A stretch of DNA of 64,000 nucleotides from an uncultured archaeon (GCA_964493715.1 CAZBPC010000001.1:44383-108382); one strand, 5' to 3'. Shown: positions 7,355-49,099, counted from the first letter of the stretch. The notes: generated by a model from the letters alone, not told the origin. Translations and numbers: made by a program.

Positions 7355-7387
7355 TTTTTTTTATTAATAAAAAAATGAAGGTTAGAA

Positions 7388-8332
7388 TTACAAGTCTAAA
7401 ACTTCGCTTGCTACACCTTCAATCGCTTGTTTTGAAGGAAGACCTTTTAATAGTTCGGATTTAATTCGATCAACTAATAATTGAGCTGTAAATGGTTTTC
7501 CATTATTGTCAATGCGATTAACCGTGTGCCAGCCTCGATAAACCCAAACTTTATCTCCAGCAGCTCTAAAAACTTCACCATTCACTCTTCTAGCCTCATC
7601 TGATGCTAAATATACAATTAATGGAGCAAAATGTGCCGGATCAAATACATCCAATCCTCCTTTTGCTTTTTGACTCATAAAATCAACCATTTTTGGTGTT
7701 GCGTCCGTTGTAAGCCGAGTTCGAGCCATTGGTACAACGCAATTAACGGTAGCATATTTTTTTAATTCCATGGAAGTGATTAACGTGAATGCTGCAATAC
7801 CGGCTTTAGCAGCACCATAATTTGCTTGACCGAGATTGCCTAACAATCCAGCATCTGAAGCAGTGTTAATAATCCTTCCAAAATTTTTCTTCCCGAGATC
7901 TTCTTTACCAACCTTTCTGAAATATTCAGCTGCATGTCTCGTTAAATTAAAAGTTCCTTTCAAATGTACTGCAATAACCGCATCAAATTCTGCTTCTGCC
8001 ATGTTGAAAATCATTCGATCTCGCAAGATTCCTGCATTGTTTACAACAATGTCTAAATGTCCGAATTCTGCGATTGCTTGATCAATCATTCCCTTCGCTT
8101 TATTAAAGTCTGCTACGGAGTCGTAATTACCTATGGCTTTTACTCCAAGAGCTTTACACTCATTGGCAACTTCGTCGGCAAATTTTGATTCTCCTCCTTC
8201 TCCATCAAAACTCCCACCAAGATCATTGATAACTAAATTACAACCTTCCCTTGCCATTGCAAGTGCTTCTTCTCTGCCCAAACCTCGTCCAGCACCCGTT
8301 ATAATGGCAACTTTACCATCTAATAATCCCAT
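7388..8332 (-). CDS. SDR family oxidoreductase (hydroxyacyl-CoA dehydrogenase / HSD17B4-like)
   Basis: TGAGRGLG, NNAGILRD, YGAAK. Confidence 0.92.
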   Translation of the reverse strand: MGLLDGKVAIITGAGRGLGREEALAMAREGCNLVINDLGGSFDGEGGESKFADEVANECKALGVKAIGNYDSVADFNKAKGMIDQAIAEFGHLDIVVNNAGILRDRMIFNMAEAEFDAVIAVHLKGTFNLTRHAAEYFRKVGKEDLGKKNFGRIINTASDAGLLGNLGQANYGAAKAGIAAFTLITSMELKKYATVNCVVPMARTRLTTDATPKMVDFMSQKAKGGLDVFDPAHFAPLIVYLASDEARRVNGEVFRAAGDKVWVYRGWHTVNRIDNNGKPFTAQLLVDRIKSELLKGLPSKQAIEGVASEVLDL

Positions 8333-42330: not shown

Positions 42331-44706
42331 ATGCCAAAATGCAAGTTCTGTGAAAGCGAAAAGATTACATTCACTTGTGAAAAATGCAACTCAAGCTTTT
42401 GCATCAATCATATGGCGAGCACTGAAGAATGGATTTGTAAAAAACACGATCATAATTATTCAAAAGCTAGTGCAGCAGAAAAGTTCTATCGATGTACGAT
42501 TATTGAAAATAGCAAGTGTCCTGAATGCGATGCACTCCTACGATTAGAGAGATTATCATCAGGGCAGTATTATTTGGAATGTACTGATGAATCTTGTGGA
42601 TGGAATTCTTATTTAAAGACACCAGGCTTATTTTTCCCAACAAAAGAACAATTAGCGCGGGAAGCTGCAAAAAATAAATTAATAACAGGATATCGGTTAG
42701 AACTTTGTCGCAGAACCTTGAAGAAAAATATTGGAAAAGAAATATGTCCCGAATGTTTCCTTGAATTATTGAAAAGAGCTCATATTACGAATTTTTCTAC
42801 AGTTATGGAGTCATTTAATATTCCCGCAAAACAACTAATTAAATTGATTAACCAATACATTAATGAAGAAAGAATTTATGGAATTATTGAACAGAAAACT
42901 CAGATGTTTTATTATATTTCGGAAGAGATTCGAGAACAAGTTTTATCCAAAATCCAAGATGACGGAAAGATTAATATTAAAGATTTAGGACTTATGTTAG
43001 ACATGAATTCTGATATTGTAATGAAGGTTATCTATAAAATTATTAATCAATATCAGATCAGGGGCTCTTTTTCAGAAGATAAAAGCTTTTATTATACCCA
43101 GAAATATATATTGGATAATTTAATAAAAGAAATAAAAGAAAAAGGGAGAATCTCACTATCAGACCTTGCTAAGTTGTTTGGAATTCCAAAGGAATTAACC
43201 AAATCATTTTGCGTAAATATAATGAGGACTGGGGCTATCAATTCTTTTTTTGCCGCAAGAGGAAATGAAATTATCACTGCTGGACAGATTTATACTGAAA
43301 TTAAGGCTTTTTCAAAAGAAGAGGGATTATTTGAATTATCCAAATTAGCTGAGAAGCTAAAAATTGCTGTCGAATTAGCCAGAAAGAGCTTACATGAATT
43401 GATAAAATCAGGATCAATAAAAGGGATCTTTACACAAAGAAGGGAGTTCATGACCAGAAGATATCTTGAAGGAAAAATAAAAGAACTCGCAAGAGCATAT
43501 AGAACGATGCCTTTGAGAGAATTATCAAACAGATTGGGCGTAACTGAATCAAGCATTGAAGAGAATTTAGCTCAATTAATCGGTAGAGGAGATATAGATG
43601 GCTATATTGACTTACATCAACGATTATTTGTTGCTTATAGTGTTCCTAGAACTAGTGGTGGTGAAGCAACCCCTAAAAAACAAGAAGATATTGAACCAAT
43701 AGATGAAGGTAAGATTGAAGTCGTAAGAGATTATGATTTTGAGGGGGGTCAAGTTCACATGAAAGTAGCAATTCGCAATAAAAGTAACATGGCGATTAAC
43801 AATGTCAAAGTAATATTAGACGCTCCTTCTAGCTTCAAAATGAAACAACCTCTATTTAGCATACCTGTTATAGAAAGTAAGTCAAGTAGAGGTGTTGATT
43901 TTTATCTAGAACCTAAAACATGTGGATCCTCAAACGTTGGGGGTACTGTAATATATAAAGATGCGACTGGTAAAAAACATACTATTAATATTAAAAAAAA
44001 AGAAGTTCAAATCAAATGTCCATTAGTTTGCACGAATTTATCTAACATTGAAGATTGTCAGGTAGCAATACAAACACTTCCAAATGATGCTCGTGCGTTT
44101 TTAATCGCCGATCTAGATCCTCGATTAACTTTTAGAGCTGCGATAAGAACTTTAAAACATTTTGAAACTAGCACAGTAACCTCTCATGAGGGTAATGATA
44201 CTGCTGGTAAATACGAGGCTGAAGCATGGTTCTGTGCAGAGGCTAAAATAACAGGTGGCCGAATTATTACACGCGTCTACGTTTCAGAAAGTAGTCAATC
44301 TCTTGAAGTCCGTGTATGGTGTGGAAATGCTGGACAATTAACAGGATTTTTAGCGAGAATAATTGAACTCCTGTTTGAAGAGATTAACATAATCAGAAAA
44401 ATCAAAAGTGAAGAGAGAGAGAAGACAATTGATGTTATGGCAATAACTCAAAATTTAGCAGAAATAAGTGATTATTGTATGTTACGTTGGAAAGCACAGA
44501 ATATAAGAAATAAATTACACGACACTTTCGTCCGTTTACGTAAATTATTAGGAGACAACGAGGCAATTCTTGGTAGAATTGAATTTTGGCTTACTCAGTT
44601 AAATAAGTATGGAAAAGATGATAAAATCAGCGATGATGACGCAGATCGATTAGTACAAGATGTGGAGAAATTCAGAGGGGTCATCGCTCGGTCAATAAAA
44701 TTATAA
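42331..44706 (+). CDS. Multidomain protein: Zn fingers + winged-helix (PCI/UFL1/DDRGK-like) repeats + Ig-like/platform C-terminal domain
   Basis: Multiple CxxC/CxxH; about five repeats of G[KR]I.L..LA..[FL].I......L..LI..G.I.G; beta-rich VAIRNKS...VDFYLEP...GTVIYKD. Confidence 0.7.
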   Translation: MPKCKFCESEKITFTCEKCNSSFCINHMASTEEWICKKHDHNYSKASAAEKFYRCTIIENSKCPECDALLRLERLSSGQYYLECTDESCGWNSYLKTPGLFFPTKEQLAREAAKNKLITGYRLELCRRTLKKNIGKEICPECFLELLKRAHITNFSTVMESFNIPAKQLIKLINQYINEERIYGIIEQKTQMFYYISEEIREQVLSKIQDDGKINIKDLGLMLDMNSDIVMKVIYKIINQYQIRGSFSEDKSFYYTQKYILDNLIKEIKEKGRISLSDLAKLFGIPKELTKSFCVNIMRTGAINSFFAARGNEIITAGQIYTEIKAFSKEEGLFELSKLAEKLKIAVELARKSLHELIKSGSIKGIFTQRREFMTRRYLEGKIKELARAYRTMPLRELSNRLGVTESSIEENLAQLIGRGDIDGYIDLHQRLFVAYSVPRTSGGEATPKKQEDIEPIDEGKIEVVRDYDFEGGQVHMKVAIRNKSNMAINNVKVILDAPSSFKMKQPLFSIPVIESKSSRGVDFYLEPKTCGSSNVGGTVIYKDATGKKHTINIKKKEVQIKCPLVCTNLSNIEDCQVAIQTLPNDARAFLIADLDPRLTFRAAIRTLKHFETSTVTSHEGNDTAGKYEAEAWFCAEAKITGGRIITRVYVSESSQSLEVRVWCGNAGQLTGFLARIIELLFEEINIIRKIKSEEREKTIDVMAITQNLAEISDYCMLRWKAQNIRNKLHDTFVRLRKLLGDNEAILGRIEFWLTQLNKYGKDDKISDDDADRLVQDVEKFRGVIARSIKL

Positions 44707-44791: not shown

Positions 44792-45199
44792 ATGCCAATA
44801 GTATCGTTTTCTATAAATGAAAATCTCCGAGAGTTTATTAATAAGTTGGTCTCACGAAATCAATATGAGAATAAATCAAAGTTGATAAGAGACGCCCTTT
44901 TGAGATTAATGTCAAGCATGGATGTAGCAAGCATTGAATCCTTTAGTAATTTAGCCCCATTGGGTAAATCGATTATTGGGAATCTCATTATTGTAATGCC
45001 ACATGATTCAATAAAAAAAATGAATAAGATAGAAATAGAATTTCAAGAGTATATTATAAGCAAAAATCAACATTTTCAAGGAGATAACGCGATAATTTTC
45101 ATGATAATCGAGACGAGTATAGAAATATTTCAAAGATTTGTTGTGGAAATAAATGGAATTGAGGAAATCTCTAATTTTCGATACATGATTATGAACTAA
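44792..45199 (+). CDS. Ribbon-helix-helix regulator, NikR-like
   Basis: MPIVSFSINENL...YENKSKLIRDAL; C-terminal ACT-like domain. Confidence 0.8.
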   Translation: MPIVSFSINENLREFINKLVSRNQYENKSKLIRDALLRLMSSMDVASIESFSNLAPLGKSIIGNLIIVMPHDSIKKMNKIEIEFQEYIISKNQHFQGDNAIIFMIIETSIEIFQRFVVEINGIEEISNFRYMIMN

Positions 45200-47497: not shown

Positions 47498-49099
47498 ATG
47501 CAGAAAAAAACTGTAATGATAATCACCTTGCTTTTAGCTGGTGGTCTAATCCCATCTGGTTTAGTAATGAATAATCTCATTAATAATGAAATTGCTCAAG
47601 GAGTTCCTGATGCGCTTCTTGGTATAAAAGAAGAAATGATTCCTGAAATTAATGAGACGATAAAAATAATGGCGATTCCTGATGTTTTAAGTGGAATTTA
47701 TGAAGAAGGTTTTCCATTAATTCACTTCTTAGTAAATTGTACTTTTCTTGCTGGGGCAATGAATGAATTTTATAATCTTCTTGGATTACCTGGCATCACA
47801 TTAATTTTAAATTTTGCTACACTCAGTGCACTCCTTACTTATATCGGATATCCCCCTGTAAAAGGAGTATCAGAGTATGTTTCCAATGCTACTTATTCGT
47901 TAAATTATACTGATGCGGCAAGTGAGGCATTGGCATTTGGCAATGATTCAATTGGATTACCCGGATTGATGGAAGACGTAGATGTAGGATGGGGTGTTTT
48001 AAATTACTTAGATCTCTATGATGAAGCTAGTTTAAATGACACAATAAAGGAATTCATGATCACCAATTACAATGCAACATGGGGTCAATTGACAAATTTA
48101 ACGAGCTATATATTAGATTATTTTATTGTAGAAGCAATAAACTTAATTCTTCTTAGTTCGTTGGCACCTCCAGAATATGTAGGATTAACCACGGTTGATA
48201 TCGCTGAAATCATGTATTATGACCAATGGGCAAATGCTTCAATGGGACAACTCGATCTCGGAGATTTACTTGGTATGCCTTATAGTGTTACCGGTTTTGA
48301 AGTGGGATATCCCATTGCTACAAATATTTCTTTTCAAATATGCTTAAATCTATATAATAAAACCAATTCATATTCATTTTTGAACATCACTTACAATGGA
48401 GATTTACCCTCGTTACAAGAATCTGATGGTTTAGCAATTTGGATCTTAGCAAATAATACTACGCTTGAAGCTAATTCTTCTAAAAATACTTTGAAAAATC
48501 AATTTAACCTAACTGATTTTCAACTTAATTCCATTCTTGCTTGGCTTTGGGGATATAATACTTCTGTTAAAGAAGATGTTGTTCCAGGATTATTTTTATA
48601 TGACAGAGGGATGACTCTCACAAGATTTTCAGAAATGCTTTTTTATGCCCAATGGGCAAATGGAACCCTATATCCTAATGGTTTAACTTTACCAATAGGC
48701 ATAGGAGTAAATGGATGGGAGGTAGGAGTGCCAATTCCCTCAACAATCTCATTAAAAGCATCTGAATCATTGTTTGATGAAACTAATGTTTATGCTTTAG
48801 TAAGTGAAAGTGGTCTCCAATATTGGTATGGTTTGTTAGACAATCCTGACCCTTTAACTTATAATAATTTGAAGACTTTTAATTATTTAAATAACGGTCA
48901 AATAAATGCGATTATATCATGGTTACCGACTTTCAGAGATAATATTGTTCCACTTTTAGCACAATTTCAAGAAGGTTTACCTTTTAACCCCTCTGAACTT
49001 TCTTCTTCCTTGCTTTACGGCATGACTATCTCTGGAGGTGTGATGGCGGTTATTGGAGTAGTAATGTTTATATTAATAAAAAGGAAAGTAAAGGCATAA
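47498..49099 (+). CDS. Surface/membrane glycoprotein with internal repeats, anchored at both ends
   Basis: N-terminal and C-terminal TM helices, basic C-tail, many N-x-S/T sequons, repeated QWAN...G[FW]EVG.P...Q[LI]N.I..WL. Confidence 0.75.
   Translation: MQKKTVMIITLLLAGGLIPSGLVMNNLINNEIAQGVPDALLGIKEEMIPEINETIKIMAIPDVLSGIYEEGFPLIHFLVNCTFLAGAMNEFYNLLGLPGITLILNFATLSALLTYIGYPPVKGVSEYVSNATYSLNYTDAASEALAFGNDSIGLPGLMEDVDVGWGVLNYLDLYDEASLNDTIKEFMITNYNATWGQLTNLTSYILDYFIVEAINLILLSSLAPPEYVGLTTVDIAEIMYYDQWANASMGQLDLGDLLGMPYSVTGFEVGYPIATNISFQICLNLYNKTNSYSFLNITYNGDLPSLQESDGLAIWILANNTTLEANSSKNTLKNQFNLTDFQLNSILAWLWGYNTSVKEDVVPGLFLYDRGMTLTRFSEMLFYAQWANGTLYPNGLTLPIGIGVNGWEVGVPIPSTISLKASESLFDETNVYALVSESGLQYWYGLLDNPDPLTYNNLKTFNYLNNGQINAIISWLPTFRDNIVPLLAQFQEGLPFNPSELSSSLLYGMTISGGVMAVIGVVMFILIKRKVKA

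Follow-up and report, generated by a model that had tools for sequence, protein, structure and literature searches.

In a 64,000-nucleotide stretch of DNA from an uncultured archaeon (GCA_964493715.1, CAZBPC010000001.1:44383-108382; the whole stretch is called the window below), the gene at 42331..44706 (+) encodes a protein of 791 amino acids (aa) in which zinc modules, a rigid arm of five winged helices (wH1 to wH5), a flexible linker, an appendage-like module and a Vps28 C-terminal-type (Vps28-C-type) bundle follow one another. [quoted passage not shown] The folds of three eukaryotic systems, namely UFMylation at the endoplasmic reticulum (ER), vesicle coats with the BBSome, and ESCRT, are united in one archaeal chain, which therefore offers a handle on pre-eukaryotic assembly from shared parts.

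The architecture is already known and has been in print since 2020. In the text to their Fig. 5a, Liu et al. (bioRxiv 10.1101/2020.10.19.343400) described exactly such an Asgard fusion, 'Vps28/Vps23 + C-terminal domains of adaptin/COPI subunits + E3 UFM1-protein ligase 1', and predicted ubiquitin-dependent membrane remodelling. Section 6 (with Fig. 6B) of Makarova et al. 2024 (10.1101/2024.02.06.579148) presents proteins made of Vps28-C, an adaptin appendage and helix-turn-helix (HTH) or PCI domains as possible ESCRT-0 analogues and proposes their association with ESCRT-II without the ESCRT-I core; UFM1, DDRGK and the BBSome do not appear in its main text. Titles in the literature on the BBSome and Asgard archaea pointed to nothing on this protein. 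All three domain types of the published fusion family were found in the one chain analysed here (Pfam E3_UFM1_ligase, DDRGK and VPS28, and the appendage by its fold). The initial annotation of the window, made from the sequence alone, had called the architecture one unfamiliar from characterised proteins; this stands in so far as no member has been characterised, but the architecture itself had already been published. What is added is structure-level confirmation of each part, a residue mapping onto DDRGK1 and UFL1, the distribution of the family and its synteny.

The winged-helix arm and its DDRGK1-UFL1 correspondence

The arm (aa 140-435) consists of five tandem units, in agreement with the roughly five repeats first annotated. 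The two peptides quoted by the initial annotation occur in the translation. In an AlphaFold2 model of aa 1-455 (32-row alignment; predicted local distance difference test score, pLDDT, 86.8), five units with the order helix, strand, helix, helix, strand, strand occupy aa 140-195, 198-256, 257-316, 317-375 and 376-435. A repeat hidden Markov model (HMM) was started from wH5 and refined by iteration over the orthologue alignment. With a last-round significance that is partly circular, it returned units at aa 193-250, 253-310, 313-370 and 372-429 together with a weaker first unit at 145-189. The Pfam DDRGK match, independent of the repeat HMM, covers aa 140-219.

Pfam families matched the protein in the order PCI (E = 3e-22, five stretches), E3_UFM1_ligase (4e-17) and DDRGK (2e-13), with ordinary DNA-binding HTH families at 1e-3 to 3e-6. 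The last of these, among them weak matches to FeoC, HTH_AsnC, HTH_DeoR and HTH_24, would fit a DNA-binding transcription regulator of the Lrp/ArsR family, and JGI names close homologues 'DNA-binding Lrp family' and 'ArsR family transcriptional regulator'. Such a role is very improbable, however, as the HTH matches are at least ten orders of magnitude weaker than those to PCI, E3_UFM1_ligase and DDRGK and all except FeoC fall below the cut-off, the fold matches UFL1/DDRGK1 first and PCI subunits next, wH2 and wH5 are acidic, and the same protein carries appendage and Vps28-C-type domains. A role as subunit of a PCI complex such as the proteasome lid, CSN or eIF3 draws on the Pfam PCI match, the NCBI name 'PCI domain-containing protein' and the superposition of wH5 on the winged helices of CSN4 and Rpn subunits (root-mean-square deviation, rmsd, 0.9-1.5 Å over 62-64 residues, 21-25% identity), and the family profile also matched Rpn6 (E = 1.5e-5) and CSN4 (E = 1.2e-4) at wH5. 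This, too, is given very little credence, because the model has five consecutive winged helices with no helical-repeat solenoid before them and the best match is the UFL1/DDRGK1 array rather than a PCI subunit; in the structural aligner VIA, PCI subunits reached Z 12-13 on wH4-wH5 only.

The closest counterpart of the arm was found to be 8b9x, an engineered DDRGK1-UFL1 chimera, which the family profile matched among PDB sequences in one collinear stretch (E = 2.8e-22, 82 bits; profile 136-351, target 11-232). UFL1 (8ohd_A, E = 3.4e-10; profile 221-436, target 27-251) and DDRGK1 (8ohd_C, E = 7.9e-9; profile 135-218, target 215-297) were also matched separately. Foldseek on the arm model returned 8b9x_A (E = 1.3e-13, target template-modelling score 0.71, rmsd 3.6 Å) and 60S-bound UFL1 (E = 1.4e-12), with SelB as the first array that is not related (6.8e-6), and VIA aligned 241 of 256 residues with 8b9x (Z 15.3, rmsd 3.5 Å). 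The resemblance of the repeats to UFL1/DDRGK1 and PCI domains, proposed at the outset, is thus upheld by sequence profile and fold.

Residue mapping places DDRGK1 215-297 on aa 144-227 and UFL1 27-251 on aa 230-445, adjacent, without overlap and in one stretch each. Accordingly wH1 (aa 145-195, 42763..42915 (+)) is the counterpart of WH1' of DDRGK1 (UFBP1), wH2 (aa 198-256, 42922..43098 (+)) that of the composite pWH'-pWH to which DDRGK1 and UFL1 both contribute, wH3 (aa 257-316, 43099..43278 (+)) that of UFL1 WH1 and wH4 (aa 317-375, 43279..43455 (+)) that of UFL1 WH2, while wH5 (aa 376-435, 43456..43635 (+)) is of PCI type and the best conserved of the five. The join (aa 227/230) falls inside wH2, between its helices H2 (aa 216-223) and H3 (aa 227-241). 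No UFL1 match of the family profile extends beyond UFL1 residue 251; the residues past aa 445 belong to linker, appendage and bundle. The human scaffold is made of WH1', the composite pWH'-pWH and WH1-5, the first three being the minimal ligase (Peter et al. 2022, PMC9627666).

What the collinear matches of profile and fold support is the correspondence with DDRGK1-UFL1; the direction of evolution is not derivable from them. Tentatively, and with somewhat less than even confidence, the five-winged-helix arm may be an unsplit archaeal counterpart of the DDRGK1-UFL1 scaffold, plausibly ancestor-like, the composite winged helix being the scar of a gene fission within wH2. Before UFM1, such an arm would have served as the reach of a coat- or ESCRT-type adaptor, possibly one docking on ribosomes, and eukaryotes would later have split it, with one half becoming tethered to the ER membrane and an E2-binding helix being gained. 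Such an origin would account for the human proteins folding only together and would provide structural work with a natural monomeric scaffold model. No statement of the fission idea was found in literature on UFL1/DDRGK1 with Asgard or other archaea, and archaea are not mentioned in the portions of Peter et al. 2022 (PMC9627666) drawn on here.

The protein is not a UFM1 ligase: neither the modifier nor its E2 is present, and the helix through which UFL1 binds the E2 is missing as well. The search for Ufm1 and Ufc1, among the checks suggested by the initial annotation, came back empty, with 0 matches to Ufm1 (PF03671) and UFC1 (PF08694) at E ≤ 0.1 in the genome (3.68 Mb, 160 contigs, estimated 100% complete), whose only E3_UFM1_ligase match is the gene described here. 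Between the DDRGK1-like and UFL1-like parts lie only aa 228-229, in the short H2-H3 loop of wH2, and the UFL1 alignment begins at residue 27, so that there is no room for the UFC1-binding N-terminal helix alpha1 of UFL1. For lack of the UFL1 N-terminal helix, a DDRGK1:207-305-UFL1:27-200 fusion, though a folded monomer, was reported to be inactive and to bind no UFC1 (Banerjee et al. 2023, PMC10702826). Also considered was a role as scaffold E3 for some ubiquitin-like modifier that is not UFM1: wH1-wH3, counterparts of the smallest catalytic unit of UFL1/UFBP1, would activate the conjugate of the genome's E2 with its ubiquitin-like protein, and the appendage and tail would bring in a substrate or ESCRT. 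Three tandem winged helices (WH1', composite and WH1), of which the Asgard arm has collinear counterparts, suffice for E2 discharge (Peter et al. 2022, PMC9627666), the genome holds five ubiquitin-family matches with an E1, an E2 and a JAB protease, and a UFM1-independent ancestral function has been suggested for Asgard UFL1/DDRGK1 homologues (Picchianti et al. 2023, PMC10183829). This reading is nevertheless unlikely, given that Ufm1 and UFC1 were not found, that the arm leaves no place for a helix which UFC1 binding and ligase activity both require (Banerjee et al. 2023, PMC10702826) and that the gene lies away from the ubiquitin cluster.

By analogy with the UFL1 arm, the protein might instead dock on the large ribosomal subunit and link ribosomes, or what they make, with membranes or ESCRT. 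All UFL1/UFBP1 winged-helix domains but WH1' touch the 60S subunit (Makhlouf et al. 2024, PMC10937380), the UFL1/UFBP1 scaffold is the closest structural match of the arm, as described above, and wH3 and wH4 are basic (isoelectric points, pI, 9.7 and 9.1). The proposal is rather improbable, since it is drawn purely from analogy, other domains take the place of those UFL1 parts (WH4-5 and the C-terminal region) that extend to the tRNA sites and the exit tunnel, and no ribosomal gene context was seen at the window or at the close loci.

The appendage-like module, the Vps28-C-type tail and the zinc modules

The arm is followed by a flexible acidic linker (aa 436-461, 43636..43713 (+)), whose pLDDT of 38-63 is low in both models. 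A second model, of aa 440-791 (79-row alignment, pLDDT 94.2, predicted template-modelling score 0.79), shows a beta-sandwich at aa 462-561 and an alpha/beta platform at aa 566-664, after which come four helices (aa 667-790), beginning with one of 51 residues. The sandwich is a GAE/appendage-type immunoglobulin-like (Ig) subdomain (43714..44013 (+)) that carries R466, GG472-473, K478, N483, P528 and C531; the platform (44026..44322 (+)) contains K639 and is directly preceded by C563-P564. Foldseek returned 51 matches at E ≤ 1e-3 for this model, and the top 17 PDB matches were all of appendage type (adaptin, COPI and BBS9; E = 3e-10 to 2e-6, most over about 240 columns), including COPI 9qpq_H (3.1e-10), beta2-adaptin 1e42 (1.3e-9), gamma-COP 1pzd (1.1e-8) and alpha-adaptin 2vj0 (1.7e-8), where about 240 columns correspond to both subdomains. 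The BBS matches extended across the whole 352-residue model (BBS9, 4e-7, 351 columns; BBS2, 3.2e-5, 333 columns; BBS7, 4e-5, 386 columns). In VIA, which is independent of Foldseek, the AP-4 beta appendage 2mj7 matched the platform (model 124-252) with Z 14.0, rmsd 2.7 Å and 119 of 141 residues, followed by BBS9 (Z 12.8, 237 residues over model 22-351), the alpha ear 1w80 (Z 12.7, 200 residues), the beta2 ear 3h1z (Z 12.7) and gamma-COP 1r4x (Z 11.0). The appendage-like call is made because the sandwich-plus-platform pair matches.

Sequence comparison of the same module gave sub-threshold signals. Pfam PTHB1_GAE, GAE_BBS1 and Alpha_adaptinC2 recurred below threshold in 16-20 of 79 homologues (best E = 0.001), and Alpha_adaptinC2 scored 13.2 bits on the 791-aa protein against a cut-off of 27.6; neither Adaptin_N nor a platform family was found in the Pfam scan of the protein. 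Among PDB sequences the family profile matched no adaptin, and only the Vps28 C-terminal domain appeared (E = 0.12-0.13); in Atlas, alpha-adaptin appendage clusters reached 0.76, under the 0.9 level that counts. It was the fold search that settled the link of the Ig and platform pair to adaptins. Adaptin appendage domains have been noted in Asgard archaea (Eme et al. 2023). The architecture of AP/COPI large subunits and BBS2/7/9 had been proposed for this module by the initial annotation and agrees with the fold matches; the outcome that was to speak against that annotation, a generic Ig fold without platform accompanied by ordinary HTH repeats, did not occur.

The Ig and platform module, often with the tail, recurs in many Asgard architectures, joined to HTH_HVO_0163_N winged helices, double zinc ribbons or TPR, TIR, NHL, FG-GAP, NosD, PKD and Big_13 domains; of ten such proteins checked, six were named, and all six were Asgard. 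Among 27 long relatives, picked from 150 listed representatives for having the module well inside the chain, 26 have a transmembrane-like segment between the N-terminal domains and the module by a crude hydropathy scan, and in those scanned with Pfam the N-terminal domains are of surface type (FG-GAP, NosD, PKD, Big_13, NHL and BNR). Their sequences suggest that Asgard archaea have a family of type-I membrane receptors whose cytoplasmic tail is appendage-like. In P0191, a shorter relative (359 aa), a TIR domain occupying aa 22-114 is fused to a stretch, aa 236-359, that is homologous to the Vps28-C-like tail (query 678-790).

The helical tail noted by the initial annotation is indeed present, its Vps28-C type having been missed there. 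The four-helix bundle (aa 667-790, 44329..44700 (+)) was assigned from Pfam VPS28 (aa 691-780) and from its fold. The Pfam match scored 25.4 bits against a cut-off of 24.5 over profile positions 87-179 (26.8 bits for the C-terminal piece alone) and was seen in 18 of 79 homologues (best E = 8.5e-7), and VIA aligned the yeast Vps28 C-terminal domain 2j9u_A with Z 12.9 and rmsd 2.1 Å over 93 of 94 residues. By model and Pfam the tail thus appears to be a Vps28 C-terminal-type bundle, a putative tie to ESCRT, by a borderline margin. The separate Vps28 gene of the genome covers profile positions 2-140, and no match was obtained between its product and the tail by BLASTP. A complex prediction of Vps22 (30-row alignment) with tail residues 684-791 scored 0.00 against a mark of 0.32 and was weighed neither way.

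Homology of the family tail to the NCBIfam family Sel_Asgard was considered and rejected, as it was not reproduced by BLASTP, by hhalign (probability 0.25%) or by an HMM of 26 orthologues (none at E ≤ 10 among 271 proteins). The NF045535 model ('Sel_Asgard, putative selenocysteine system protein') also matches the last ~195 residues, platform and bundle, of the 790-aa family in about 30 genomes (E = 3e-13 to 2e-6, full model coverage). A true member (214 bits) lies at 7381-8055 of locus L007 (contig C26 of the window's genome), directly after SepSecS, and true members were present in 39 of 39 genomes searched of the order, in 38 of them above the family cut-off.

At the other end of the chain, 16 candidate ligands within aa 1-142 are each conserved at 0.97-1.0 (at least 39 of 40 orthologues), in line with the AN1/B-box-like and C4 zinc fingers first annotated. 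Zinc module 1 (aa 1-45, 42331..42465 (+)) holds C4, C7, C16, C19, C24, H27, C36 and H39, with the spacing of an AN1/B-box-type, two-zinc cross-brace. The following region (aa 50-144, 42478..42762 (+)) comprises four cysteines spaced as in a zinc ribbon (C63, C66, C84, C89), further cysteines (C55, C126, C139, C142) and a basic linker (pI 9.7 for aa 96-144). The zinc part was modelled with pLDDT of about 83-90, module 1 with 84-88. Zinc-finger families gave no significant match in the Pfam scan of the protein. The label 'AN1/B-box-like' is suggested by ligand spacing together with one weak PDB match of module 1 (1x4v, E = 0.92), which we take to be an AN1 finger; the family profile also gave weak zinc-ribbon matches near residues 66-96 (RPC10, E = 0.26; Top3-alpha, E = 0.39).

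The adaptor reading, its distribution and its genomic setting

In the adaptor reading, the Vps28-C-type bundle would, following the proposal of Makarova et al., dock the protein on ESCRT-II (Vps22/Vps25) or ESCRT-III independently of the ESCRT-I core, the appendage may act as a hub for short peptide motifs by analogy with AP2, COPI and the BBSome, and the winged-helix arm with the zinc modules would hold cargo or a large partner. Besides the domain architecture, the genome speaks for this reading, as it encodes components of ESCRT-I, ESCRT-II and ESCRT-III together with Vps4, and ubiquitin-like genes with E1, E2 and JAB proteins. A crude hydropathy scan found no hydrophobic segment in the 791-aa protein. 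In an alignment of 40 full-length orthologues (39 from database searches, three of them at 42-46% identity), the most conserved stretch is aa 691-720 (0.94), followed by wH5 (0.90), as would be expected for binding surfaces, and the transmembrane-like segment before the module in 26 of 27 relatives fits a cytoplasmic docking module on membrane receptors. Yeast two-hybrid contacts have been described between Lokiarchaeal ESCRT-I (Vps28/Vps23) and Vps22 (Hatano et al. 2022), and the same functional prediction was made by Liu et al. and Makarova et al. (10.1101/2020.10.19.343400; 10.1101/2024.02.06.579148).

Several observations weigh against the adaptor reading. Taken alone, the sandwich fits generic Ig folds as well or better (9fyo, Z 13.4; C3, 12.7; transglutaminase, 12.4) than GAE domains (10.1-10.7; GGA2 GAE, 10.7). 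Unrelated bundles score only about one Z unit lower than Vps28 on the tail (CheA P1, Z 11.9), and Z below about 13 is common for helical bundles, so that the Vps28-C identity leans on a Pfam margin of 0.9 bits. R466, G472-G473, K478, N483, P528, C531, C563-P564, K639 and T671-G672 are near-invariant over 79 rows that are mostly 20-30% identical, C531 and C563 both occurring in 72 of the 79, and with such a signature the module may have a specific function of its own. To our knowledge, invariance of C531, C563, N483, P528 and K639 is not familiar from eukaryotic ears. The gene lies outside the ESCRT cluster, on another contig, and its immediate neighbours were kept in none of eight loci outside the taxonomic family of the window (seven orthologues, 39-45% identical, and one variant, 24% identical). 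No match was found in the same-genus genomes G237, G238 and G256 (95-99% complete) despite the presence of Vps22, which means that the protein is either dispensable or was missed by assembly. Lastly, the adaptor function of the whole family is a prediction from sequences and models.

The open reading frame (ORF), with an ATG start, a stop after 791 codons and 0 internal stops, lies in an AT-rich window (guanine plus cytosine ~0.31). The ratios of nonsynonymous to synonymous substitution rates against the two closest orthologues (0.046 and 0.062) mark it as a real gene under purifying selection. A word-indexed search that scored 8000 candidates gave 314 relatives at E ≤ 1e-3; the 120 matches listed are 71-94% identical to the protein, are 735-795 aa long and share its Pfam set. 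Listed relatives are named 'PCI domain-containing protein' (NCBI), 'DUF2042 domain-containing protein' or Lrp/ArsR regulators (JGI). The Asgard origin put forward in the initial annotation was borne out within the Loki group, the named close homologues being proteins of Promethearchaeota/Lokiarchaeota metagenome-assembled genomes, with some other Asgard labels at equal identity; eukaryotic sequences were absent from the listed matches. An exhaustive search of 50% representatives returned 579 matches at E ≤ 1e-3, of which 184 lay at or below 1e-10 and 27 at or below 1e-30; full-length orthologues at 42-46% identity account for three of these matches.

Within the phylum the family was present in 157 of 398 genomes at E ≤ 1e-10. 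Full-length orthologues (at least 40% identity) are nearly universal in one order of Lokiarchaeia, that of the window, with 121/132, 1/1, 13/14 and 4/4 genomes in its four families; in the remaining families of the class, the sole form is a variant of about 25% identity without the N-terminal zinc part, and matches in the phylum beyond the class are few and weak. One such variant, in genome G123 of the same class (L079:620-9401; 24% identity, 797 aa, without zinc N-terminus), lies directly 3' of a same-strand ORF of 2128 aa. Closed single-contig genomes of a sister family hold orthologues at about 43-45% identity, and pull-downs and localisation would be feasible if these organisms are in culture.

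The gene is separated from its neighbours by 149 base pairs upstream and 85 downstream and is apparently monocistronic. Across 57 loci (56 and the window), a count that covers the close, family-level clade only, a downstream 135-aa gene was kept in 55, an upstream DsbD-like membrane protein in 50, a parvulin in 48 and a GT87 glycosyltransferase in 47. Of 10 more distant loci only two, at 57% identity, retain the neighbours, there with the downstream gene on the opposite strand. A conserved operon partner was thereby ruled out, and by Pfam no trafficking or ubiquitin function occurs among the neighbours in the window; we conclude that the gene sits in no functional operon. A promoter scan, uninformative for an archaeon, gave 15 sites against 17.5 expected and 0 terminators. 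The downstream gene (44792-45199 (+)), without a Pfam match and absent beside eight distant homologues, has an N-terminus that by eye presumably resembles a NikR/CopG-type ribbon-helix-helix. Further along, at 47498-49099 (+), an ORF of 533 aa probably encodes a surface glycoprotein; it has no Pfam match, its N- and C-terminal segments are hydrophobic, and N-x-S/T sequons are numerous.

Elsewhere in the genome, Vps22, Vps25, Vps4 and Snf7 form one cluster, and Vps22 was found in 57 of 59 genomes searched of the order. Just upstream of Vps22 (L013:6407-8667, contig C24), with an opposite-strand NIP7-like gene between, lie ORFs of 319 and 434 aa without Pfam matches, which are candidate Vps23-like or steadiness-box partners; the 319-aa ORF matches the winged-helix part of the profile of the 79-row alignment (E = 1.9e-6). 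The Vps28 gene (235 aa; L007:13441-15010, contig C26) is situated outside the ESCRT cluster, overlaps the end of a gene for a membrane protein with zinc-ribbon and Yip1 domains and is followed by ribosomal protein L34e. The ubiquitin cluster (L086:7158-12436, contig C35) contains three ubiquitin-family ORFs, of which two have a long extension at the N-terminus, and further codes for an ArsR-like winged-helix protein, a ThiF E1, a UQ_con E2 and a JAB protease.

Comparison with known systems

Relative to the family of Liu et al. and Makarova et al., the 791-aa protein is an orthologue with the same domain set and lineage and shows no architectural difference. Its arm shares with human UFL1-DDRGK1 (UFBP1) (8b9x, 8ohd, 8qfc, 8c0d) the winged-helix order WH1', composite, WH1, WH2 and WH3; however, it is one chain where the human scaffold is two, and it lacks the UFL1 alpha1 helix, the DDRGK1 membrane anchor and N-terminal helix, and UFL1 WH4-5 or the C-terminal region. 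The arm is akin to the engineered helix-less DDRGK1-UFL1 fusion of Banerjee et al. With subunits of the lid, CSN and eIF3 a PCI-type winged helix is held in common, whereas the helical-repeat part that precedes it there is missing.

The ears of AP2 alpha and beta2, AP-4 beta and COPI gamma and beta have the same two-subdomain fold, sandwich and platform, after a flexible linker. The Asgard module differs from them in having no adaptin solenoid trunk, in sequence-family scores of 13-15 bits against 27, and in the near-invariant C531, C563, N483, P528 and K639 signature across archaeal relatives. The C-terminal halves of BBS2, BBS7 and BBS9 share the order of GAE, platform and helical part, but the Asgard protein has no beta-propeller, an rmsd of about 18-23 Å reflects other relative orientations of the domains, and its helical part fits Vps28-C best. 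With Vps28 itself (2j9u, 2j9w, 2g3k) the C-terminal four-helix bundle is common to both, while the N-terminal core/steadiness-box half with which Vps28 builds ESCRT-I together with Vps23 has no counterpart in the Asgard tail.

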